The notes under the pieces were generated by a model that was not told where the DNA came from, searched no databases, and was given only the letters and a program-made list of their open reading frames with translations. Shown here in pieces: positions 5,452-32,859 of a stretch of 64,000 bases of DNA (the first letter of the stretch is position 1; each line of letters opens with the position of its first letter). Source of the stretch: an uncultured Pseudomonadota bacterium (GTDB taxonomy: Bacteria > Pseudomonadota > Alphaproteobacteria > Rs-D84); assembly GCA_949298405.1 (NCBI GenBank), contig CASFWA010000002.1, positions 10,048 to 74,047 on the forward strand, read 5' to 3'. A program made the position numbers and the translations under genes.

Positions 5452-6639
5452 TTATCCCCTTATATCCTCTGGCACAAATTCCAACATTTTATCGGCGGCA
5501 CGTTGGATAGAATCACGCACAGGGTCCATTGTTAAACGGGCATATACCTGGGTTGCTGCGCTGGTTTTATCGCCCAGGGCCTTGCCCACAATATGTAAAC
5601 TGGCACCGGTTATGGCCTGGTAACTGCCGAATGTACGACGCAGGTCATGGAACCGCAGGTCTTCGATATTCGCACGTTTTAACAATGCATACCAGGGACG
5701 GTGAAAGTCCTCGACATGACCGCTTTTGCTGCCGGCACGACTTGAAAACACCCAGTCATCAGTCGCATAAGTGCGCATATCTTGCAATATTTCAAGTGCC
5801 TGCGATATTAATGGGATGCGTTGCGGGTCACCATTTTTAGAATCCGGGAACAGCACAAACCCTAGATTCAAATCAACATTTGACCAGCGCATGGACAGCA
5901 TATTTTGCCGACGCTGACCAATAAACAGCGATAACAGCACATAGTTTTTAAACGCCTCGTTCGGCTCTTCGGCCAGTGCTGCAAAGAAACGTGTTATTTC
6001 ATCTGGCTGCAGGAAACGTTCACGGGACTTTTCACGAAACATTTTTATCCCGACCGCAGGATTACCATGATGTGCCGGATACCCCCATTCTATGGCCTTG
6101 TTATACATGTGTTTTATCAATCCAAGTGTCCGGTTGGCGGTGTATAAACTTATCTTGCTGCGCAACCCCGAATGTATCCGTTCCAGGTCAACACGCGTTA
6201 TGCTTATCATTTTACGGTTGTGCAATTCGGGCAGGTAATTGCGAAACATTGATTCAACCTTGGCCTGTGATTTTTGCTTTGTATACACCAAAACGTGCCG
6301 TGGGTAATACTGAGTATCAAAGAACTGTTTTAATGTCATATCACGCAGGGCTTCGTTGCGTTCTTGGCCGGGGTCTGTTCCGTGGTCGGCAACGGTCCGC
6401 AATTCACGTGCTTTCATCCGGGCTTCGACCAATTTTGTAACACCAACACGACCAATTTTTACACGCTTTGGCACCCCCAGGAACTTGGTATAGAAATAGT
6501 ACGTTTTTGTCCCGCCATAGGTCACAATGATGCACAAACCCGGTTGTCCATTGTCATAATAAGTCATTGGACGCTTGTCGGTCGGAATTGGCAATTCGGC
6601 CAACGTTTTTTCTGTAAAATTTATATGGTTATTGGTCAT
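5452..6639 (-). CDS. int: tyrosine site-specific integrase (phage/P4-type)
   Basis: 395 aa. N-terminal arm-binding-like region. C-terminal catalytic HDLRRTF and a Tyr in ATQVYARLT. Lies adjacent to the tRNA-Asn fragment. Confidence 0.85.
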   Translation of the reverse strand: MTNNHINFTEKTLAELPIPTDKRPMTYYDNGQPGLCIIVTYGGTKTYYFYTKFLGVPKRVKIGRVGVTKLVEARMKARELRTVADHGTDPGQERNEALRDMTLKQFFDTQYYPRHVLVYTKQKSQAKVESMFRNYLPELHNRKMISITRVDLERIHSGLRSKISLYTANRTLGLIKHMYNKAIEWGYPAHHGNPAVGIKMFREKSRERFLQPDEITRFFAALAEEPNEAFKNYVLLSLFIGQRRQNMLSMRWSNVDLNLGFVLFPDSKNGDPQRIPLISQALEILQDMRTYATDDWVFSSRAGSKSGHVEDFHRPWYALLKRANIEDLRFHDLRRTFGSYQAITGASLHIVGKALGDKTSAATQVYARLTMDPVRDSIQRAADKMLEFVPEDIRG

Positions 6640-23989: not shown

Positions 23990-24664
23990 TTAGTGATTAA
24001 TTATGTTTTTAATCGCAAAATTTGCCAGGCACAAACCGAATGTTCCTGTCACGGTTATAACAGAACCAAACACCCTGCCTTTTACATTATCATCAGCAGG
24101 CTCGGTTGAATATACTGTATAAAAATCCTTAATTTTTTCTTCTTTTACAATCTTTCTTATCTTCGCTGCAAGTGGGCATACACTAGTCTTTGAAATCTTC
24201 CCCACTTTTATTTGTGAGATATCTGTCTTACGTGCTGCACCCATACTTGATATAAAAGGTATTTCTTTTTTTTGACACCATTTATATAACGCTATCTTCG
24301 ATTCAACCGTATCTATTGCATCTATTACAAAATCAGGTTTTATATCTAAATCCGTATCTTTATCAAAAAACATATCTAACGCATCAACTGTTATATCTGG
24401 TGATATATCTTTTATCCTGTCTTTTGCTACTTCTACTTTCTGCTTACCCAAAGTACTTTCCAAAGCAAATAATTGACGATTTATGTTTGTTTCTTCTACC
24501 TTATCAAAATCTATTACTATAAGATGCCCGATACCACTTCGTGCCAAAGCCTCTATCGCAAAAGAACCAACCGCACCACACCCCACAACCATCACCGTCG
24601 CATTCTGCAACTTACTTATAGCATCATCACCAAATAATAAACGCGTTCTGTGTAATCTATCCAT
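23990..24664 (-). CDS. tcdA: tRNA threonylcarbamoyladenosine dehydratase (ThiF/MoeB-fold, TcdA/CsdL-like)
   Basis: 224 aa. Rossmann motif VVGCGAVGS and E1-like fold. Confidence 0.7.
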   Translation of the reverse strand: MDRLHRTRLLFGDDAISKLQNATVMVVGCGAVGSFAIEALARSGIGHLIVIDFDKVEETNINRQLFALESTLGKQKVEVAKDRIKDISPDITVDALDMFFDKDTDLDIKPDFVIDAIDTVESKIALYKWCQKKEIPFISSMGAARKTDISQIKVGKISKTSVCPLAAKIRKIVKEEKIKDFYTVYSTEPADDNVKGRVFGSVITVTGTFGLCLANFAIKNIINH

Positions 24665-25385
24665 TATTCAATACTCTTTTACTATTTTCGTAAACTTGTT
24701 TTATAAAGTCTGATTTTTCTGCGTCACGCATTTCTGCAAGCCTTTCTGCAACTTTTATAACATTTTCTATTTTTTCATTGTCGCTTTCAATAAGTATCCT
24801 GTCATGCGGTGTTGCAACAGCAGATTCTTTTAACTTATTGTGCCCATCTGTAAAAACAAGTGGTGAATAAGAAAAATATACATTACCCAAACTCAACAAC
24901 CTTCCCATAACATCCGCGCCACCGTTATAAGAATGAAATATTAGTTTTGGTGGGATTTCTTTTCCGCGTTTCTTTAATATGTGCAATATTTTATCCCACC
25001 CACCGACACAATGTATATGTACAGTTCTGTTCAAATTAGTTGCGACATCAAGTTGCGCACAAAAGACTTTTTCCTGTAAGTCCATATCTGGCTTATATTT
25101 ATCAAGCCCTATTTCACCAACCATAAATTCTGAATTCTGATTTAAAACCTCGGTCAAACGCTGTTCCCACCCTTCTCTTAAATCTTTCACGTTCCAAGGA
25201 TGAATACCAAACGCACATTTTACTGCTGAATAATTTTTTGATAAATCAAGCAACTTTGTCCAATCCTTTTCAGATGTTGAATTACATACACAACAAACTA
25301 CGCCAGATTTTTCCGCACTATTCAGCACAATTTCTGGCTCAGGCACATTCTGTAAATGACAATGAATATCTATATATTTCGGCAT
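24657..25385 (-). CDS. tatD: TatD-family metal-dependent hydrolase/DNase
   Basis: 242 aa. N-terminal IDIHCHL (HxH) and later metal-binding H/E/D residues. Confidence 0.8.
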   Translation of the reverse strand: MPKYIDIHCHLQNVPEPEIVLNSAEKSGVVCCVCNSTSEKDWTKLLDLSKNYSAVKCAFGIHPWNVKDLREGWEQRLTEVLNQNSEFMVGEIGLDKYKPDMDLQEKVFCAQLDVATNLNRTVHIHCVGGWDKILHILKKRGKEIPPKLIFHSYNGGADVMGRLLSLGNVYFSYSPLVFTDGHNKLKESAVATPHDRILIESDNEKIENVIKVAERLAEMRDAEKSDFIKQVYENSKRVLNNG

Positions 25386-25435
25386 ACCACAAGGGTAAAA
25401 TTTATAAAACGTTTTTCAAGTACAACTTTATCATC

Positions 25436-25464
25436 TTGATTTTTTTACTATTTTATGATATACT
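25436..25464 (+). promoter_or_regulatory. sigma70-like promoter (TTGATT-17 bp-TATACT)
   Basis: -35 TTGATT at 25436-25441, a 17-nt spacer, -10 TATACT at 25459-25464. Read from sequence; strength and activity unknown. Confidence 0.45.
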
Positions 25465-25480
25465 ATATGCAATTGATAAG

Positions 25481-25505
25481 GTGGTCTTCGCGACCACTTT
25501 TTTTA
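25481..25505 (+). terminator. intrinsic terminator-like hairpin 1 in the methyltransferase leader
   Basis: GGTGGTC-TTCG-CGACCAC followed by TTTTTTTAT. Confidence 0.55.
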
Positions 25506-25507
25506 TT

Positions 25508-25538
25508 GCGCCCCGTTTTATGGGGCCTTTTTTATTTT
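25508..25538 (+). terminator. intrinsic terminator-like hairpin 2 in the methyltransferase leader
   Basis: GCGCCCC-GTTTTAT-GGGGCC followed by TTTTTTATTTT. It lies immediately before the AAGGAG RBS at 25540-25545. Confidence 0.5.
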
Positions 25539-25550
25539 CAAGGAGCCTTT

Positions 25551-26426
25551 ATGCAAAAATATAAATACATAAACCTATTTTCTGGCATCGGTGGCTGGGA
25601 ATTAGGACTGCAAGACTTACCAATGGAAAACATTTTGTCTTGTGAAATTGATAAGTATGCACGTCAAACTTTCCTTGCTAATTTTCCCGACCTGCCCTGC
25701 GTAAAAAAGAATAACTACCCAACGAATATTCGTGAACTTAACCCGCATGATATACCAGAATTTGATATTCTGGTTGGCAGCCCACCTTGCCAATCTTTCT
25801 CAACCGCAGGACTTCGTAAAGGCTTAAAAGACGATAAAGACGATAAGGGAAATATGTTCTTCTATGTCTTGAACATTATTAAACACCACCGTCCAAAAGC
25901 ATTTATTCTGGAAAATGTAAAGGGATTACTTACAGCCGAAGGTGGCAGAAGTTTTCGTATTATTCACGACCTATTCAGAAACGCAGGTTATTCGTTCCAT
26001 TATAAAGTAATAAAAGGTTGTGATTGTGGAATTCCACAGGTCCGACAGCGCGTCTTTATGGTCGGATTTCGTGACGAGAATCAAGAAACAAGCACATTTC
26101 AGTTTCCTTCCCCAGTCCCACTTAAATTTACTATGCGTGATGTGTTTAAGTGTAAGACTTGTAATAGAGATATTGGGCATACTGTTATGACAACCCGCCA
26201 CAACAAAAATTATGGCGAACCTTTAAATTGGTCTGCATATATAATTGACGGGAAGGAAAGACGTATAACATTAGATGAAATTCAAATGCTAATGGGGTTC
26301 CCCGATAACTTTTTATTTCCTGTTCCTAAAACCCAACGAATGAAACAACTTGGGAACAGTATAATACCCGATTGTGTTAATATGGTATCAAAACAGGTTC
26401 TTTTGTACTTGAAAAACGTTTTTTGA
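25551..26426 (+). CDS. DNA (cytosine-5)-methyltransferase
   Basis: Motif I FSGIGGWELG, motif IV PPCQSFS, motif VI ENVKGL. The true start at 25551 (AAGGAG 5 nt upstream) is preferred over the ORF-track start at 25455, because the extension contains two terminator hairpins. Confidence 0.85.
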   Translation: MQKYKYINLFSGIGGWELGLQDLPMENILSCEIDKYARQTFLANFPDLPCVKKNNYPTNIRELNPHDIPEFDILVGSPPCQSFSTAGLRKGLKDDKDDKGNMFFYVLNIIKHHRPKAFILENVKGLLTAEGGRSFRIIHDLFRNAGYSFHYKVIKGCDCGIPQVRQRVFMVGFRDENQETSTFQFPSPVPLKFTMRDVFKCKTCNRDIGHTVMTTRHNKNYGEPLNWSAYIIDGKERRITLDEIQMLMGFPDNFLFPVPKTQRMKQLGNSIIPDCVNMVSKQVLLYLKNVF

Positions 26427-26443
26427 TTGGTAATCATTCTTTT

Positions 26444-27466
26444 ATGAAAAAAATATTTGTGCTTTTTTTTAGTGCTTTTATGTTGATATTCCATAGTGCC
26501 ACAGCATTTGAAATATCAGACATAAAAAACTATCCTGCTATTGTTGTTAAAACAATGGTTGAAAGTGATACACTTCATAAAACAACAAGCAAGAAAACAG
26601 AAATACGAAATGGCGAGGCTTTACGAAAAATTCTAGGCGATGAAAAGGTAAAATTTGATACAGAATATGTATATATAGGTGATAAAAAAATAGAAGAAAA
26701 AGGCTCTACTACCTGGTATCATTACACAAGCCCAAAATCAAAAACTAAAAAGCCAGTTTATCATTTGTACTATCAAAAGAAACGTCCTATGTACGAAGGA
26801 CAAGTTGGTGACACATTGGCGGTTATACGAAAATCTGATAGCGAGATAGTTTTGCTTATCGTAAAGCAAAATAGTGATGCAGAAAAAGAATTATATGAAA
26901 TTATCGGTATACTGCCAAACCATACAACAAATAAAGAATCTACATTTTGGCAACGACTATGGAATACAGAATCAAAACAAACAGAAGATTATGAATTAGA
27001 AGAAGAATCTTTACCACTACCTGCAATACCAGAAAAATCTTGGGTGCGTGTTTATTTCACCCCAGGTCCAGATTGTGAAAATAATATTATCACAGAAATC
27101 AACAATGCTAAAAAGATTGATATCGCTGTTTATTCTATAACAAACCAGAATATAGTTGATGCTATAATAGAAGCAAAAGAACGTGGTGCAAAAATAAGAG
27201 TTATAACAGACAGATTACAATCAAAAGGTAAATATTCATTAGTTGATGAACTTTCTGATGCAGGTATCCCCGTTATAACAAATGTCGGACATAAGATTAT
27301 GCACAACAAGTTCGCTATATTTGACGGTAAAAGAATAGAAAGTGGCAGTTATAACTGGACTGAAAGTGCAACAGAATCAAACGCAGAAAATTGTACGTTC
27401 TTTGAACAAGAAAATAAAACCTTCTCTAAACAATTTGAATATCTTTGGGATTTGTATCAAAAATAA
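26444..27466 (+). CDS. secreted phospholipase-D-family (Nuc-like) nuclease
   Basis: Signal peptide MKKIFVLFFSAFMLIFHSATA. HNKFAIFDGKRIESGSYNWTESA is the HxK(x4)D...N PLD motif. The ORF track starts at 26423; the ATG at 26444 is the likely start. Confidence 0.7.
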   Translation: MKKIFVLFFSAFMLIFHSATAFEISDIKNYPAIVVKTMVESDTLHKTTSKKTEIRNGEALRKILGDEKVKFDTEYVYIGDKKIEEKGSTTWYHYTSPKSKTKKPVYHLYYQKKRPMYEGQVGDTLAVIRKSDSEIVLLIVKQNSDAEKELYEIIGILPNHTTNKESTFWQRLWNTESKQTEDYELEEESLPLPAIPEKSWVRVYFTPGPDCENNIITEINNAKKIDIAVYSITNQNIVDAIIEAKERGAKIRVITDRLQSKGKYSLVDELSDAGIPVITNVGHKIMHNKFAIFDGKRIESGSYNWTESATESNAENCTFFEQENKTFSKQFEYLWDLYQK

Positions 27467-27494
27467 AAAACCCGCTGAAATCAACAGGTTATCT

Positions 27495-27570
27495 TGGTGG
27501 GGACACAGGGACTCGAACCCTGGACCCAATGATTAAAAGTCATTTGCTCTACCAACTGAGCTATGTCCCC
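27495..27570 (-). tRNA. tRNA-Lys (anticodon TTT), 76 nt with encoded CCA
   Basis: Reverse complement GGGGACA-TA-GCTC-AGTTGGTA-GAGC-A-AATGA-CTTTTAA-TCATT-GGGTC-CAGGG-TTCGAGT-CCCTG-TGTCCCC-A-CCA folds as a canonical cloverleaf. Confidence 0.9.
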
Positions 27571-27687
27571 AAAACGGAACCGGAAATAAGATTCTTTGTG
27601 GTCTCTTTTTCCGTGGTTCGGGGGCAATTTTGACATAAAAAAATATAAATTGCAAGAAAAAATAATCTTTTTTTACTTTTTTCTTTA

Positions 27688-28353
27688 TCATATACCGTCC
27701 GCAGAATCTTCGGTAATATCCTGGGGCATCCCGGTGGATGCCGGGGTACCACTATCCTGCCACTCTATTATACGTAAAATTATGTTTTTTACATGTTTCG
27801 CCACTATCGTCTTGTCCCTGTGAAAATTATGTTCCGTCATCAAATGCAATATCTCGCGACTTAACGATGATAATATCTGCTCTTGGTCACTTGTTAATAC
27901 ATTCCCTTTACTGGCACGATATATTATCTCGTCTATTTCATACCGGTATGCGCGCAAATTATTCATCTCCGAACGAGTTATCTTTAGTCTTTCTGCTATC
28001 TTTTTTACAGACCAATCCTGCAATTTATTAAAAGTTTCTAAGTGCACATTTACTTTTAAACCTAATGAGTGGCGCAAAAACACAACTATGTTTAATATCA
28101 CAGAATTTACTTTATCCGAAATATTACTCGCAAGACTTCTATTAACCTGACGAGAAATTCTATAATTCGTATAGTCATAAAGTAAAAACACTAAGGGTAT
28201 CGACAATAACGACGCAGCAATATTATCTATCAACCCACTAACATTCGGATTCCGGAATTTATCTAGGGATATTAAAAATAAAGTTATGCCCCCTATTACA
28301 GATAATATATACGGTATCGTTTTTAATAAAAGGTTTTTCAGCATTATACTCAT
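27688..28353 (-). CDS. hypothetical membrane protein
   Basis: 221 aa. Two N-terminal TM helices, then a charged/helical region. Confidence 0.45.
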   Translation of the reverse strand: MSIMLKNLLLKTIPYILSVIGGITLFLISLDKFRNPNVSGLIDNIAASLLSIPLVFLLYDYTNYRISRQVNRSLASNISDKVNSVILNIVVFLRHSLGLKVNVHLETFNKLQDWSVKKIAERLKITRSEMNNLRAYRYEIDEIIYRASKGNVLTSDQEQILSSLSREILHLMTEHNFHRDKTIVAKHVKNIILRIIEWQDSGTPASTGMPQDITEDSADGI

Positions 28354-28402
28354 GCTGATATTTTAACCAAAATCCCAATAACTTTTATATAAGAAGGCTT
28401 TC

Positions 28403-29647
28403 CTATACTATATCACTGCCCCCAGGACGCATCGTTTTAAAGATTTCCCCTGTCTTATTTGGCTCGTATGCGCACTTATTTTTTACAAACAGCAATGCCC
28501 ATAATCCAGTTAAACCTAATATAAGCCCAGCAAATAAAACACCATATCGCCAACTGCCCAAAGTACCACCAAACCCAATTAATAAACACATTAACACATA
28601 ACTAACATTATCCCCAATACTATATAAAGACAGCATTACAGGTCTATGCGATGTTGGAATAAAGTCTTGCAATCGCGCAAATAATAAAATAAATAACCCG
28701 CTAAGCAAAACATAACCTATTCCTAAGAATAACAAACCTGAAACAGAATAAAAGATAGAAAATGCAACAAAACTGATACCCAATGCGCATATAGCAGTAT
28801 ATAAAATCCAATCTTTTATTTTACTAAATCTATATGCGAAAGTCTGCCCCAGCACAGAGCACCCCAAACAGAAAAATGACACAATACCAACATATTCAAC
28901 CGGCAGCCCTATTTCTACACCAATAAGGCTTAAATAATCATCCAGATATGCAAAATTTGAAAACAACCACAAAACCATCGCTACCATAAATATACAAGGC
29001 ATTTTTCTGCAAATTCTAAATGCTGTTTTTATGAAAGATATAGAACGGATTTTCTTTGCCTTTTTCGGTTCTTTTGTTTTTTTATGTTTAAACTTAATAG
29101 ATAGTATAAAAAGACTGGAAACAACCAATGCGGTAACTGATGCCAAAGTAATCCATTCATAACCAAAAAACATTAACAGAGACCCAGACGCTGCAAACGC
29201 AACCGCCATTGCTTGAATGTTATATATTACCCCAAGCACCCTCGCATAAAGATTCCGGTGGTGTCTGGCACTTAACTCGTCATAAACGACAGTCTCAAAC
29301 GATACATTATATATCGCGGTTTGCGTCCCCCATAAAAACATTCCCACTGCAAAACCCCAAAAAGTAGGGACAAATAGCCATAGTATAAATGCCGCCGCCT
29401 TTAAAAACTGCCCGAATATTATGGAATATTTATGACCTATTTTATTTGCAAGCCACGTGACCGGAATTTGTGATGCAATAATACCAACAGATAAAATTAT
29501 AAACAAAGAAGATAGTTGCATGTCTGTCATGCCGTTGTCTTGCATAAATACAGAATACACCGGTGCCAACAAAAGCATTTTATTAAAGAAAGAAAAACCG
29601 TAAATACATGTCAAAAAATGCTTTATGGCACTATGCGCCTTTTTCAT
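28403..29647 (-). CDS. MFS-type transporter
   Basis: 414 aa with about 12 hydrophobic segments in an MFS-like arrangement. Confidence 0.7.
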   Translation of the reverse strand: MKKAHSAIKHFLTCIYGFSFFNKMLLLAPVYSVFMQDNGMTDMQLSSLFIILSVGIIASQIPVTWLANKIGHKYSIIFGQFLKAAAFILWLFVPTFWGFAVGMFLWGTQTAIYNVSFETVVYDELSARHHRNLYARVLGVIYNIQAMAVAFAASGSLLMFFGYEWITLASVTALVVSSLFILSIKFKHKKTKEPKKAKKIRSISFIKTAFRICRKMPCIFMVAMVLWLFSNFAYLDDYLSLIGVEIGLPVEYVGIVSFFCLGCSVLGQTFAYRFSKIKDWILYTAICALGISFVAFSIFYSVSGLLFLGIGYVLLSGLFILLFARLQDFIPTSHRPVMLSLYSIGDNVSYVLMCLLIGFGGTLGSWRYGVLFAGLILGLTGLWALLFVKNKCAYEPNKTGEIFKTMRPGGSDIV

Positions 29648-29779
29648 ACCCTTCCCCGTTTATAAAGATAAATCACTTCTTTGATTATAACTCAAAAGCC
29701 CCCTTTTTTGTACTAAAAACATTGAATTTTTGTCAAAAAGCATTATAATTAATTGGGTATAAAGCAACAGAGGTTTCTG

Positions 29780-32191
29780 ATGGCAGATGTAAATATGAAC
29801 GATTTTCTTTTACAATATTATATGCAGTTGCATTTCAATGCAATGCCACCTGAAATCTTTGCTAAATATCAAGATTATGTAAAAGCAGATGACTTCCGTG
29901 GCAATATGAAAGATTGGAAGTCAAAATTAATGCACCAAGACAATAGTGGGAAATGGGTAAAAAATGGCCTACCTGACCCAAATGATGCAAATGGTAATTT
30001 CCACCTGACTGACGATGAATGGAAAAAGTTATTTAACGCTTTTCAGGGTGCTATGCGCGCCATGTCTGCCAACACCAAAAGTTTTGCAGAAAATTCTAAG
30101 GCAAACGCTTTCCTTAAAGAATATTTTGGCGATCCTGCTACACATCTATTCTCGAACGGTACCGCAAATCAGACCGCAGAAGCACAAATTCAAGTTCTGA
30201 AAAATTTGTTGTCTGACAATAATTTTCGATCAACCTTAAATTTCTATATCAAGGATATTTTAAAAGAAGCAGAAATTTCTTATTCCGATTTATTAAGTGG
30301 AATTAATTCTAAAAAATATAATACCGACCCTAAATTCCAAACAACTTTAAAACAAGTTGCAAGTTATATGAACTATTATGTTCATAACGACCAGAATTTG
30401 GCTAACTCCCCGTATGGGACACAAGACTTTTCTGCAATTGAATCTGGTTTTGATGACGCAACGGTTTCACAAAATAAACTTGATTACTTTAAAAGAAATT
30501 ATAAAACCCTTTTAAATACTCTGCATAACGATTCAAAAGTTTATGAAGTATTTAAAAGTTTTGATAAGGGTAAAATCTCTAAATCTTTAGATGCAGCATT
30601 AAGCAAAGTAGATTATGCAAATAAAGATAGCAAAGATTATGTTCCTCCAAAACGCAGTGACGAATTAACCCCATGGCAACACTTACAAGGTGAAATAAGC
30701 GATACACTTGAAGATTATATGGGGAAATATATTCATCTACGTGGTGATAGATTATATTTTTCTGATTCCGCAAAACTAATTATAAAAGCTATTGATGGAA
30801 CAAAGTTCAAACCGACTGACGGTATCGCAAAAGTATTGGAAAACGCAGGAAAAATTAAAGAAAACTTGCTTTATAAATCACCACGCGCGACTGACCATTT
30901 TGATTGGTTTTCTAAAACACTGGGTGAATTAAAATCTACTATGCCCAAGGCTTTTGATGGTGCTTTAAAAAATGCACGTCAAATGAAAGCGCTGATAGAA
31001 GAAATGATTATCAAAGTAGTTCGTGAAAATAAAATAGATGAAGCAAAAACTGCTATGGAGGTTCTATCCGTAATTAAGTATGGTTATACAACTAGCAAAA
31101 TTATGGACACACTTAGTAAAGAACAGTTAACTATATTCTCTGATGGTGGATTATCTTGGAATAAAAACGAAGGTGTAAAATTTGTCACAACTGCAATGGA
31201 CAAAAGTATAAAAGCGGCCTTTATGGGGGTTGGATATGTTATTACCGCTGCAGGAAACGCCTATAAACTGTCTGGCAGTAAATTTAACGGAAAAACAAAA
31301 CGCATAAAGGGCAAAAGGGATGCATGGTTAAATGATAACGCCACAGGATTACAAGCAGCAACACAAAACCGCGATACAGAAAATCAAATTGATATAACAG
31401 ACCGTGGCAATCAAGAAACTATACTGCAAGGTACAGGCATAACCGATCAAACAATAGCCCAAGAAAAACAAAACCTTGAAACATTTAAACAAGATGCAGA
31501 ACAAAAACACTCTGTTTTAGAAACGGCGTCAACAACTTATAATGATGCAAGAAGCCTTATTGATGAAGATGACTCTTATACCGCGCAAATAAACCAATTA
31601 AATGCTGATATGCAACAAATAGCAGCAGATATAGCACAGATAGATAACGATTTACGAAACCCCAATACTTTTGCTGGAATGCCGCCTGCCGCTGCAAATG
31701 CATACGCAAATGATTTAATGAGGCAAAAACGCGACAAACAAAATCTTGGTCAAAAGAAATTAAAACAAGCACAAGATTTAAGAAATCAACAAATGCAAAT
31801 TAATCAGCAGGCTTTAACAAATGCACGCGCAAATATAAACAGATATCAACAGAATTTTGTAAATGCAGAAAACGATTACAATGCTGCACAAACACGCGCA
31901 GACGATTTAAATACAAAAATAAATGATTTCACACTTGCGTCAAGCCGTATAAAAGAACTTAACGATAGAATAAACAAAAGAAATGAAGAGGTTTCAAACT
32001 GGGATAATAACCATAAAGACAAATATAAAGAACTTATGGCCTACTGGGACTTCTTAGAATCTGGTCGCGATTCTCATACAGGTAACATGTATTCTTGGAT
32101 GCCGGGCAGCGCAAAGAAAAAGCAAGCAAAATTTGATGCAAATAAAATTGCTCAACTTCAAGCGTATATGTCCAATTATAATGTGGCTTGA
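29780..32191 (+). CDS. large hypothetical protein with Q/N-rich coiled-coil C-terminal third
   Basis: About 803-812 aa (the ORF track starts at 29753; MADVNMNDF at 29780 is also possible). No signal peptide and no TM helix. The C-terminal 250 aa are heptad-like and Q/N/K-rich. Confidence 0.55.
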   Translation: MADVNMNDFLLQYYMQLHFNAMPPEIFAKYQDYVKADDFRGNMKDWKSKLMHQDNSGKWVKNGLPDPNDANGNFHLTDDEWKKLFNAFQGAMRAMSANTKSFAENSKANAFLKEYFGDPATHLFSNGTANQTAEAQIQVLKNLLSDNNFRSTLNFYIKDILKEAEISYSDLLSGINSKKYNTDPKFQTTLKQVASYMNYYVHNDQNLANSPYGTQDFSAIESGFDDATVSQNKLDYFKRNYKTLLNTLHNDSKVYEVFKSFDKGKISKSLDAALSKVDYANKDSKDYVPPKRSDELTPWQHLQGEISDTLEDYMGKYIHLRGDRLYFSDSAKLIIKAIDGTKFKPTDGIAKVLENAGKIKENLLYKSPRATDHFDWFSKTLGELKSTMPKAFDGALKNARQMKALIEEMIIKVVRENKIDEAKTAMEVLSVIKYGYTTSKIMDTLSKEQLTIFSDGGLSWNKNEGVKFVTTAMDKSIKAAFMGVGYVITAAGNAYKLSGSKFNGKTKRIKGKRDAWLNDNATGLQAATQNRDTENQIDITDRGNQETILQGTGITDQTIAQEKQNLETFKQDAEQKHSVLETASTTYNDARSLIDEDDSYTAQINQLNADMQQIAADIAQIDNDLRNPNTFAGMPPAAANAYANDLMRQKRDKQNLGQKKLKQAQDLRNQQMQINQQALTNARANINRYQQNFVNAENDYNAAQTRADDLNTKINDFTLASSRIKELNDRINKRNEEVSNWDNNHKDKYKELMAYWDFLESGRDSHTGNMYSWMPGSAKKKQAKFDANKIAQLQAYMSNYNVA

Positions 32192-32230
32192 TTTTTTCTG
32201 GTGTTTATGTTATAATTACGTTTATAAAAC

Positions 32231-32258
32231 AACCGCCGTTCTGGCGGTTTTCTTTTTT
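32231..32258 (+). terminator. rho-independent terminator
   Basis: AACCGCC-GTTCT-GGCGGTT followed by TTCTTTTTT. Confidence 0.7.
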
Positions 32259-32286
32259 CAATTTTTTATAACATAAAGGATTATAT

Positions 32287-32859
32287 ATGGCTCGCGTTTT
32301 ACAAATTCGACGCGGTACAACCGCTCAAAATGATAACTTTACAGGTTTATCTGGCGAAATCACTTTCGATACAGATGCAAAAACTATCCGCGTTCACGAC
32401 GGTCAAACCCTTGGAGGATTTCCTCTCGCACGCGCGAACAAAGATTCTTCATCCGGTGACGGTAGTTTTGATATAACATCCGTCCCAGATGAAACTTGGC
32501 AAGAAATTTTTGCCAACTTTGCCCCAGCACCATTGACAATGTTGGAAAGTACTTTAATCTCTGTTCCAAATGCGACTGCATTAGATTATATATTTGATTG
32601 CAATAAACCTGCTAAAATTATTCAGACTATGCTTGTATGTCAAACCCCAGAAGCAGGATACAGTATAGGTGATGAAGTTTCCGCTTTCGGTATAGACAAC
32701 AGAACCAACCCTGCACCAAACACTTTTATAGACCAAAGCGGTCTGCACGTTCGCCTGATGATAGGTAATAAACCTTTCTGGGTAAGCCATAAAGATACAG
32801 GAAATACAACAAATATAACAAACGAAAATTGGCGCATTTTATTCAGAGTTTACTGTTGA
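32287..32859 (+). CDS. phage tail-fibre-like protein with Mtd_N-type N-terminal domain
   Basis: The N-terminus VLQIRRGTTAQNDNFTGLSGEITFDTDAKTIRVHDGQTLGGFPLAR closely parallels the N-terminus of the Bordetella phage BPP-1 major tropism determinant (VQFRGGTTAQHATFTGAAREITVDTDKNTVVVHDGATAGGFPLAR, recalled from memory). The protein is short (190 aa). Confidence 0.55.
   Translation: MARVLQIRRGTTAQNDNFTGLSGEITFDTDAKTIRVHDGQTLGGFPLARANKDSSSGDGSFDITSVPDETWQEIFANFAPAPLTMLESTLISVPNATALDYIFDCNKPAKIIQTMLVCQTPEAGYSIGDEVSAFGIDNRTNPAPNTFIDQSGLHVRLMIGNKPFWVSHKDTGNTTNITNENWRILFRVYC

Follow-up and report, generated by a model that had tools for sequence, protein, structure and literature searches.

The window analysed here is a 64,000-nt stretch of contig CASFWA010000002.1 from an uncultured alphaproteobacterium of the order Rs-D84. 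Next to a tRNA-Lys gene it carries a gene for a C5-cytosine (m5C) DNA methyltransferase, followed on the same strand by a gene for a phospholipase D (PLD)-family nuclease. We consider it probable that these two genes form a compact, mobile restriction-modification cassette of gut Rs-D84/Enterousia whose cognate nuclease acts in the periplasm or outside the cell. That the unit is a conserved two-gene cassette of the restriction-modification type, with a BfiI/EcoRII-like reader, is well supported. The initial annotation of this DNA had seen export and restriction-modification as an either/or choice. The evidence speaks for the two together, and that choice appears to have been a false dichotomy.

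The nuclease consists of a signal peptide, a B3-like reader and a Nuc-like PLD domain, the domain pair of BfiI and NgoAVII in reverse order. The initial annotation had recognised the signal peptide and the PLD domain, and both are present, but it missed the 145-residue domain between them. The AlphaFold model of the full-length protein has a pLDDT of 88.1, and the linker before the PLD domain differs in length and sequence among homologues. PLDc_2 matches residues 215-335 (E = 6e-27). With the PLD domain as query, Foldseek found Nuc of S. typhimurium (1BYR, TMt 0.81), Zucchini and NucT of H. pylori as the closest solved structures, and phmmer reached 1BYR by sequence too (2e-15), in agreement with the PLD/Nuc assignment made earlier. 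Residues H287, K289, D294, G301, S302 and N304, and the two cysteines C211 and C317, are invariant in 53 homologues.

The nuclease family has 387 homologues, and two irregular forms were seen. At the related locus L006 (6001-6986) the nuclease frame is split, with N-domain matches in two frames and an open reading frame (ORF) that restarts at 6315; the gene is a frameshifted pseudogene, unless the split is an error of the assembly. The protein P0091 (420 aa, 64 member sequences) is an EcoRI-like methyltransferase fused to a PLD domain, with neither signal peptide nor B3 domain, and may have arisen by deletion or be a single-chain variant that stays in the cytoplasm.

The structural comparison list for the B3-like reader is headed by the EcoRII N-terminal domain (11.0) and the C-terminal recognition domain of BfiI (10.2), followed by the N-domain of LlaJI.R1 (8.8), plant B3 domains (8.4 and 7.6) and the B3 domains of UbaLAI (7.4) and NgoAVII (7.2). 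A profile of the domain matched 606 cluster representatives among 1.84 billion proteins. In the nearest matches the reader begins at residue 20-45, after a hydrophobic leader, and the C-terminus is a PLD domain or a staphylococcal nuclease. In more distant matches it begins at residue 8-10, and those scanned carry EcoRII-C, an AAA_21 ATPase or GmrSD_N. Many of the matches are about 400 aa long, and all four of those scanned have an EcoRII-C catalytic domain. The module has been shuffled widely among defence nucleases. Pfam gave no match to the reader domain alone, and its EcoRII-N model does not cover it. The likeness to EcoRII-N and BfiI-C is one of modelled structure, with support from sequence coming only from the metagenomic EcoRII-C proteins. 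The reader module is thus a DNA reader of the restriction-system type, with binding predicted from homology. The earlier description of an extracellular nuclease merely co-regulated with a modification gene does not fit a protein with such a domain. In the proteins P0138, P0139, P0151, P0163, P0198 and P0210 the reader was seen in cytoplasmic homologues, fused to EcoRII-C, GmrSD_N (DUF262) or an AAA_21 ATPase.

The first gene was correctly read as a C5-cytosine methyltransferase. Motifs I, IV, VI, VIII and X can be read in its translation (FSGIGG, PPCQSFS, ENV, QVRQRVF and GNS) and the catalytic core is intact. The closest solved structure is that of M.HhaI, over residues 5-199 only, and the protein has no segment resembling a signal peptide. 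PADLOC labels it MTase_II. We also considered whether the cassette is a known defence system and rejected this, as PADLOC gave only the generic MTase_II label and a weak DrmC-like match to the PLD, and no system model fits.

The methyltransferase had been called an orphan, which its relatives contradict. Among the loci fetched, a methyltransferase gene lies directly upstream and on the same strand for all 25 B3-containing homologues and for none of the 78 PLD-only homologues. The partners belong to three unrelated classes, m5C (PF00145), EcoRI-like N6-adenine (PF13651) and N6_N4 (PF01555). In the window the two genes are separated by a 17-nt spacer. As in a type II system, the endonuclease gene is adjacent to the methyltransferase gene and inherited with it. 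At the three loci examined in which a staphylococcal nuclease is the catalytic domain, one nuclease gene comes directly after an m5C gene and another overlaps a convergent N6_N4 gene; at the third (L087) an m5C gene lies 3 kb away on the other strand. In the syntenic strain represented by L001 (3103-7778), an m5C pair and an EcoRI-like pair stand in tandem at the site that the cassette occupies in the window, followed by a Peptidase_M15 gene before tRNA-Lys. The first of these pairs is 97% identical to that of the window. In the second, the PLD domain is 97% identical to the window's and the reader only 42%; this second cassette has no promoter of its own and one hairpin only.

The two proteins also change together. 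Comparing 8 m5C cassettes region by region, we found pairwise identities of 88-100% in the methyltransferase catalytic core and 71-99% in the PLD domain, and of 45-100% in the methyltransferase recognition region and 33-100% in the B3 domain. Identity in the recognition region followed identity in the B3 domain (r = 0.94) far more closely than identity in the PLD domain (r = 0.27), and 11 EcoRI-like cassettes gave the same pattern (r = 0.88-0.89 versus 0.46). The recognition region and C-terminus of the methyltransferase, the signal peptide, the B3 domain and the linker make up a central block that falls into three discrete types: type A in the window and L001, type B in L002, L007 and L010, and type C in L008, L009 and L017. 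L006, which was aligned separately and lies outside the 8-cassette comparison, shares the type-A recognition region. Such a mosaic is expected if both proteins read one site and a change of site comes about through exchange of the central block, with the conserved arms on either side staying in place. The co-varying discrete types are indirect evidence that methyltransferase and nuclease may share a target. The reversed domain order of the nuclease places both specificity determinants side by side on the DNA, which offers a rationale for that order. That the two enzymes behave as a cognate restriction-modification pair, and that the specificity block is swappable, are both well supported.

The nuclease is probably exported. 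Its N-terminus, MKKIFVLFFSAFMLIFHSATA followed by FE, is built of n-, h- and c-regions in the manner of a Sec signal peptide, and the signal peptide reported earlier proves to be shared by nearly all full-length homologues. Even those of only 40% identity start with 1-3 K/R residues and a hydrophobic stretch of about 12 residues, and have small residues at -3/-1 immediately ahead of F-E/D. A clear lipobox (VLTGC) is seen in one member, P0096. No internal methionine would permit a start that skips the signal segment and leaves the reader intact. In the EcoRII-like cytoplasmic homologues the domain starts at residue 8-10 with no hydrophobic leader. A sister family (P0109, P0112, P0115, P0122-P0134 and P0140-P0145; loci L086-L088) keeps the signal peptide and the B3 reader and has a staphylococcal nuclease in place of the PLD. 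Staphylococcal nuclease is a classic secreted fold. The signal peptide, the invariant cysteine pair, the exported PLD relatives and the staphylococcal-nuclease variants therefore favour export. For a cell with two membranes, the periplasm is where such a protein would go by default. A type II nuclease acts in the cytoplasm, and in this respect the conserved predicted Sec signal peptide with its -3/-1 site would set the window's enzyme outside that class.

Taken together, these observations suggest the following picture. The m5C methyltransferase would act in the cytoplasm and mark the cell's own DNA at a short target sequence. The nuclease, with its cleavable Sec signal peptide, its B3-like reader and a metal-independent Nuc-type PLD, would fold, become disulfide-bonded and dimerise, and would do its work in the periplasm or extracellularly. 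There the B3 domain would bind the unmethylated target and the PLD dimer would cut nearby, sparing DNA methylated by the cassette, so that double-stranded DNA would be sorted before reaching the cytoplasm. Foreign DNA would be fragmented, which would block its uptake as genetic material and supply nucleotides to an organism unable to make them, while kin DNA would be spared. Specificity would change by swapping one contiguous central block between the methyltransferase core and the PLD arms. We infer that cleavage outside the cytoplasm would be blocked by methylation and would serve as a DNA barrier, a nucleotide source or both. We hold a broader version only tentatively, and lean a little away from it: that this is extracytoplasmic restriction, in which exported sequence-specific nucleases sort self from foreign DNA before uptake, one recombination event reprogrammes both specificities, and the leader may belong to a regulon.

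Several points weigh against this picture. Sequence-specific cleavage and its block by methylation rest on homology to the EcoRII and BfiI readers, and the reader profile, searched against PDB sequences, gave only noise, with no sequence match to E. coli EcoRII or BfiI. For the signal peptide the criterion was a rule of thumb, the -3/-1 rule. The recognition region and the B3 domain are physically adjacent on the DNA, so part of their correlation could be linkage. No DNA-uptake machinery was seen in the scanned parts of the window, the rest of the genomes not having been searched for it. Since the chromosome is not obviously threatened by an exported enzyme, it is not self-evident why a methyltransferase is kept, and protection from mislocalised enzyme explains it as well as self/non-self sorting does. 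The main rival, which we think unlikely, is an exported nuclease that mainly scavenges environmental DNA for nucleotide salvage, in which B3 only raises the affinity for DNA and the methyltransferase guards the chromosome from enzyme that folds before export, with no sorting of external DNA. Nucleotide biosynthesis is missing from the host lineage, and the same genomes encode many PLD-only exported paralogues. Both PLD and staphylococcal nuclease are folds typical of scavenging enzymes, and export otherwise makes classical self-protection needless. However, the 78 PLD-only exported nucleases do without a methyltransferase, a mere affinity tag would have no need to diversify together with the recognition region, and restriction enzymes are where the B3 family is otherwise found. 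This rival overlaps in part with the reading that we prefer, having the same cognate pair and the same export, and differs in purpose alone.

It is improbable that the cassette is a classical cytoplasmic BfiI-like Type IIS system, with an N-terminus that does not serve export or only anchors the enzyme on the cytoplasmic side of the membrane. The domain pair is that of BfiI and NgoAVII, the cognate methyltransferase adjoins, and the P0091 fusion shows that cytoplasmic PLD variants can occur. Yet the positive N-terminus, the hydrophobic stretch and the small -3/-1 residues are kept across very divergent sequences, and an anchor whose positive end stays inside would put the enzyme outside even if it were not cleaved. 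The invariant cysteine pair, the secreted-type staphylococcal nuclease as alternative catalytic domain, the exported nearest PLD relatives and the lack of a leader in cytoplasmic B3 homologues all point the same way. Far less credible still is a chance association, in which a non-specific secreted nuclease came to share operon and attenuator with an orphan methyltransferase to which it is unrelated. The gene layout by itself would allow this, but the linkage (25/25 against 0/78), the recruitment of three methyltransferase classes, the B3-like reader in the nuclease and the co-variation of the specificity regions contradict it.

The leader is the other unusual part of the cassette. The initial annotation had described a promoter, TTGATT-17-TATACT, followed by two terminator hairpins with T-runs and then by an AAGGAG ribosome-binding site, and each of these was found (Table 1). 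The hairpin of terminator 1 spans 25478-25500 and is followed by TTTTATT, that of terminator 2 spans 25510-25526 and is followed by CTTTTTTATT, and each stem has a probability of 0.96. The fold of 25465-25560 consists of exactly these two hairpins (-30 kcal/mol, z = -3.97), and none of 200 shuffles was equally stable. Between 24500 and 28500 there are 7 terminator-like sites, against 2.3 expected from shuffles. The transcription start was placed where CAT/CAA is conserved in the aligned leaders, as judged by eye.

The design is shared. The promoter is kept across 19 cassettes, which include both main methyltransferase classes, and TG-TATA-T is invariant in leader alignment A3. The common plan is TTGATTTTT, 14 nt, TG-n-TATAAT or TATACT, a C-A start, hairpin 1 with T6-8, hairpin 2 with T6-8, AGGAG and ATG. 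As the MAFFT alignment A3 put the hairpins out of register, they were scored sequence by sequence. Two terminator-like hairpins are present in 18 of the 19 related leaders tested. Their stem sequences differ between cassettes (at least 13 distinct hairpin-1 arms were counted), with 5-10 bp, 3-7 G-C pairs and pairing probabilities of 0.85-1.0 in nearly all leaders; in L001 the stem of terminator 1 is maintained via a G-U wobble and its loop is altered. The tails resemble those of genuine tRNA terminators in the same genomes (T6-8-A-TT). Across all fetched loci, 19 of 347 long ORFs with a ribosome-binding site have two or more terminator-like sites within 110 nt upstream; 16 of these are cassette methyltransferase genes, and among the other long ORFs the count is 3 of about 330, so that the leader goes well beyond what chance would give. 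The two hairpins are, on this evidence, real tandem intrinsic terminators that would cap the output of a strong promoter.

The idea of an attenuator-like leader stands only in part. Of what defines a cis-acting attenuator, the leader has the intrinsic terminator, and an antiterminator, a sensor domain and a conserved leader peptide are missing. Minimum free energy and centroid folds of the leaders gave only the two hairpins, with no mutually exclusive antiterminator structure, and the refolding of the window's leader that the initial annotation had proposed gave no other fold. An E-value scan of 24000-29000 against Rfam matched the tRNA alone, so that the leader has no Rfam family. A leader peptide or N-terminal extension of the methyltransferase was considered and rejected, as the frame open from 25455 in the window is broken in L001, L006 and L008. 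The hairpins were also considered as a dispersed repeat or miniature inverted-repeat transposable element, which is ruled out by both hairpin sequences being unique in the window. With no alternative fold, conserved leader peptide or Rfam family, any regulation must therefore act in trans. The near-consensus promoter would drive the cassette, the two 5' terminators would throttle it, and only read-through transcripts would reach the genes, read-through being either constitutive at a low level or raised by a trans-acting factor. The U-run of terminator 2 (25527-25545 region) can also pair weakly with AAGGAG, an optional helix with a probability of 0.3-0.6 in many leaders; this pairing could further lower translation of the transcripts that read through.

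An alternative that concerns the leader alone is that the hairpins are 5' stabilisers of the mRNA, or the body of an abundant trans-acting RNA of about 35-65 nt, and not attenuators. Hairpin 1 begins about 6-9 nt from the predicted 5' end, and a strong promoter with a double terminator is usual for small RNA genes. Against this, both hairpins carry the T6-8-A-TT tail of genuine tRNA terminators, the free variation in stem sequence leaves little sequence information for a trans-acting RNA, and Rfam gave no match. We consider this alternative unlikely and prefer to see the hairpins as terminators that restrict expression.

The cassette abuts the 3' end of tRNA-Lys, as had been noted, and adjacency to a tRNA gene recurs in related loci. 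The pair lies beside tRNA-Lys also in L001, L008, L009 and L017. In the window, L001 and L008 it is convergent with the tRNA; in L009 (4823-6975) and L017 (4876-7023) it has the opposite orientation (the corresponding stretch of the window is 25436-27570). In L017 the tRNA and the cassette appear inverted as a unit relative to the flanks, and no recombinase or repeat was seen to explain this. In further cassettes the preceding tRNA gene is that of tRNA-Val, Thr, Glu or Ser. One and the same TatD/tRNA-Lys site holds type A in some strains and type C in others, an observation consistent with allele replacement through homologous recombination. Three cassettes, on contigs that IMG/VR classes as viral, have P2-like tail genes as neighbours. 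Two loci, L092 (4154-6026) and L094 (2066-4158), have the same leader near late control D-like and tape measure-like genes (seen in translations only) and may be prophage cargo.

No recombinase belongs to the cassette unit, and no integrase or transposase was found among the ORFs surveyed within about 14 kb on either side, several of which have no Pfam match. Among the neighbours, those that match Pfam have housekeeping roles (TatD, ThiF, an MFS transporter, acetate kinase, RecG, RNase PH and RNase E/G), and the GC content of the cassette is the same as that of its surroundings. Uncultured gut Alphaproteobacteria are the source of the related contigs, for the most part 'Candidatus Enterousia' (order Rs-D84), together with Gastranaerophilaceae. 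Enterousia genomes, mostly smaller than 1 Mb, have no pathways for nucleotides, amino acids and lipids (PMC12306168).

The same type of leader also occurs elsewhere, and before unrelated genes, so it is not specific to restriction-modification, which tells against a leader dedicated to the cassette. The only other perfect cassette-promoter motif in the window, TTGATTTTTT...TGTTATAAT, overlaps the stop of an 812-aa ORF (29753-32191) and is followed by the second leader of Table 1. That ORF has no Pfam match and is conserved beside MFS and 221-aa genes in relatives. Relatives have tandem-terminator leaders of the same design at L035 (10070-10180), L043 (2780-2890) and L059 (4353-4463), preceding a homologue of the window's Mtd_N-like gene, a gene for a 335-aa protein and one for a 177-aa putative GH24 phage-type lysozyme (from inspection of the sequence). 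There may be a dispersed Rs-D84 regulon, in which the cassettes and lysozyme, tail-fibre-like and cell-wall genes come under one antiterminator. At L011 (2533-3500) a second EcoRI-like methyltransferase gene, with a leader identical to that of L063 from the same metagenome-assembled genome, is followed by no nuclease gene and looks orphaned.

Table 1. Features of the cassette and of the second leader in the window.
Feature	Position	Strand	Details
Cassette promoter	25436-25464	+	-35 TTGATT(TTTT) at 25436-25441, 17-nt spacer, extended -10 TG-n-TATACT at 25459-25464
Predicted transcription start	25471	+	A of conserved C-A step, about 7 nt past -10; inferred position
Leader terminator 1	25478-25507	+	9-bp stem AAGGTGGTC/GACCACTTT, 5-nt loop, T-run
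Leader terminator 2	25510-25536	+	Stem GCCCCGT/ATGGGGC, 3-nt loop, CTTTTTTATT
Shine-Dalgarno AAGGAG of the methyltransferase gene	25540-25545	+	Read from the sequence
C5-cytosine DNA methyltransferase	25551-26426	+	291 aa, catalytic core residues 1-198; PF00145, E = 6.6e-69
Variable target-recognition region	26145-26336	+	Methyltransferase residues 199-262; three discrete types
Nuclease coding sequence	26444-27466	+	340 aa; starts 17 nt past the methyltransferase stop
Sec-type signal peptide	26444-26506	+	Residues 1-21, predicted cleavage between ATA and FE; rule of thumb
B3-like (EcoRII-N/BfiI-C type) DNA-recognition domain	26507-26938	+	Residues 22-165
Acidic linker, low confidence	26939-27040	+	Residues 166-199; pLDDT 51-54
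Nuc-like PLD domain	27041-27466	+	Residues 200-340; HKD H287-x-K289-x4-D294, G301-S302-x-N304
tRNA-Lys terminator	27469-27490	-	2 nt past the nuclease stop; marks the 3' edge of the cassette
tRNA-Lys(ttt)	27495-27570	-	3' end faces the nuclease stop
Second promoter-terminator leader	32188-32286		One hairpin and T-run (AACCGCCgttcTGGCGGTT), then ribosome-binding site
Gene behind the second leader	32287-32859		190-aa protein with Mtd_N domain

Restriction-modification is treated as a cytoplasmic defence. If our preferred reading is true, restriction would extend to a new compartment through a widespread family of exported nucleases that read sequence and are paired with cognate methyltransferases, and transformable or DNA-scavenging bacteria would have a concrete mechanism for telling kin from foreign DNA before uptake. 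That the cassette is among the few accessory systems kept in genomes of less than 1 Mb suggests a strong selective value. Possible gains are metal-independent, disulfide-stabilised, site-directed nucleases, and a naturally occurring layout whose single central block determines what the two enzymes recognise.

The cassette combines features of several known systems. Its nuclease shares with BfiI and NgoAVII a B3-like recognition domain and a single-HKD, Nuc-like PLD. BfiI, however, has an N-terminal PLD, a C-terminal B3 domain and no export signal, and has no detectable sequence-level similarity to the window's enzyme, in which the order is signal peptide, B3, linker and PLD. Unlike both BfiI and NgoAVII, the window's family has a conserved signal peptide, an invariant cysteine pair and a PLD exchangeable for a staphylococcal nuclease, and unlike NgoAVII the cassette has no ATPase partner. 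R.EcoRII/M.EcoRII is a Type IIE system that also has an m5C methyltransferase; the window's nuclease differs in having a PLD and not a PD-(D/E)XK catalytic domain, in its predicted export and in finding no match to Pfam EcoRII-N.

Nuc (pKM101, S. typhimurium) and NucT (H. pylori, 6EHI) have, like the window's nuclease, a signal peptide and a single-HKD, dimerising PLD fold, and they act outside the cytoplasm. They are single-domain, non-specific and have no methyltransferase partner, whereas the window's protein adds a 145-aa sequence reader and a cognate methyltransferase. NucT has been linked to natural transformation. In the Campylobacter CtsM system (RAATTY), and in restriction barriers to transformation more generally, the concept is that methylation marks kin DNA, which then survives uptake (literature cited in PMC10287943). 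The likeness of the cassette to CtsM is conceptual, a functional analogy in the methylation-based discrimination of transforming DNA. We know of no exported nuclease in methylation-based transformation systems such as CtsM.

Promoter-proximal terminators are overcome by antitermination in lambda PR'-tR'/Q and set the product ratio in ToxIN. In both, as in the cassette, a strong promoter is followed immediately by an intrinsic terminator or terminators ahead of the genes served. The cassette differs in having no Q-like gene, qut-like site or repeat RNA, and in having two terminators within about 65 nt of the start.

A full-text literature search, incomplete in its coverage, found no periplasmic, secreted, exported or extracellular restriction enzyme, and a comprehensive 2025 review of restriction-modification biology mentions neither the periplasm, nor secretion, nor signal peptides. 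The conserved predicted signal peptide would set the nuclease apart from every characterised restriction enzyme found here. The parts of the cassette, its methyltransferase, B3 reader and PLD nuclease, are known; the predicted compartment, the architecture and the regulatory leader appear to be new.

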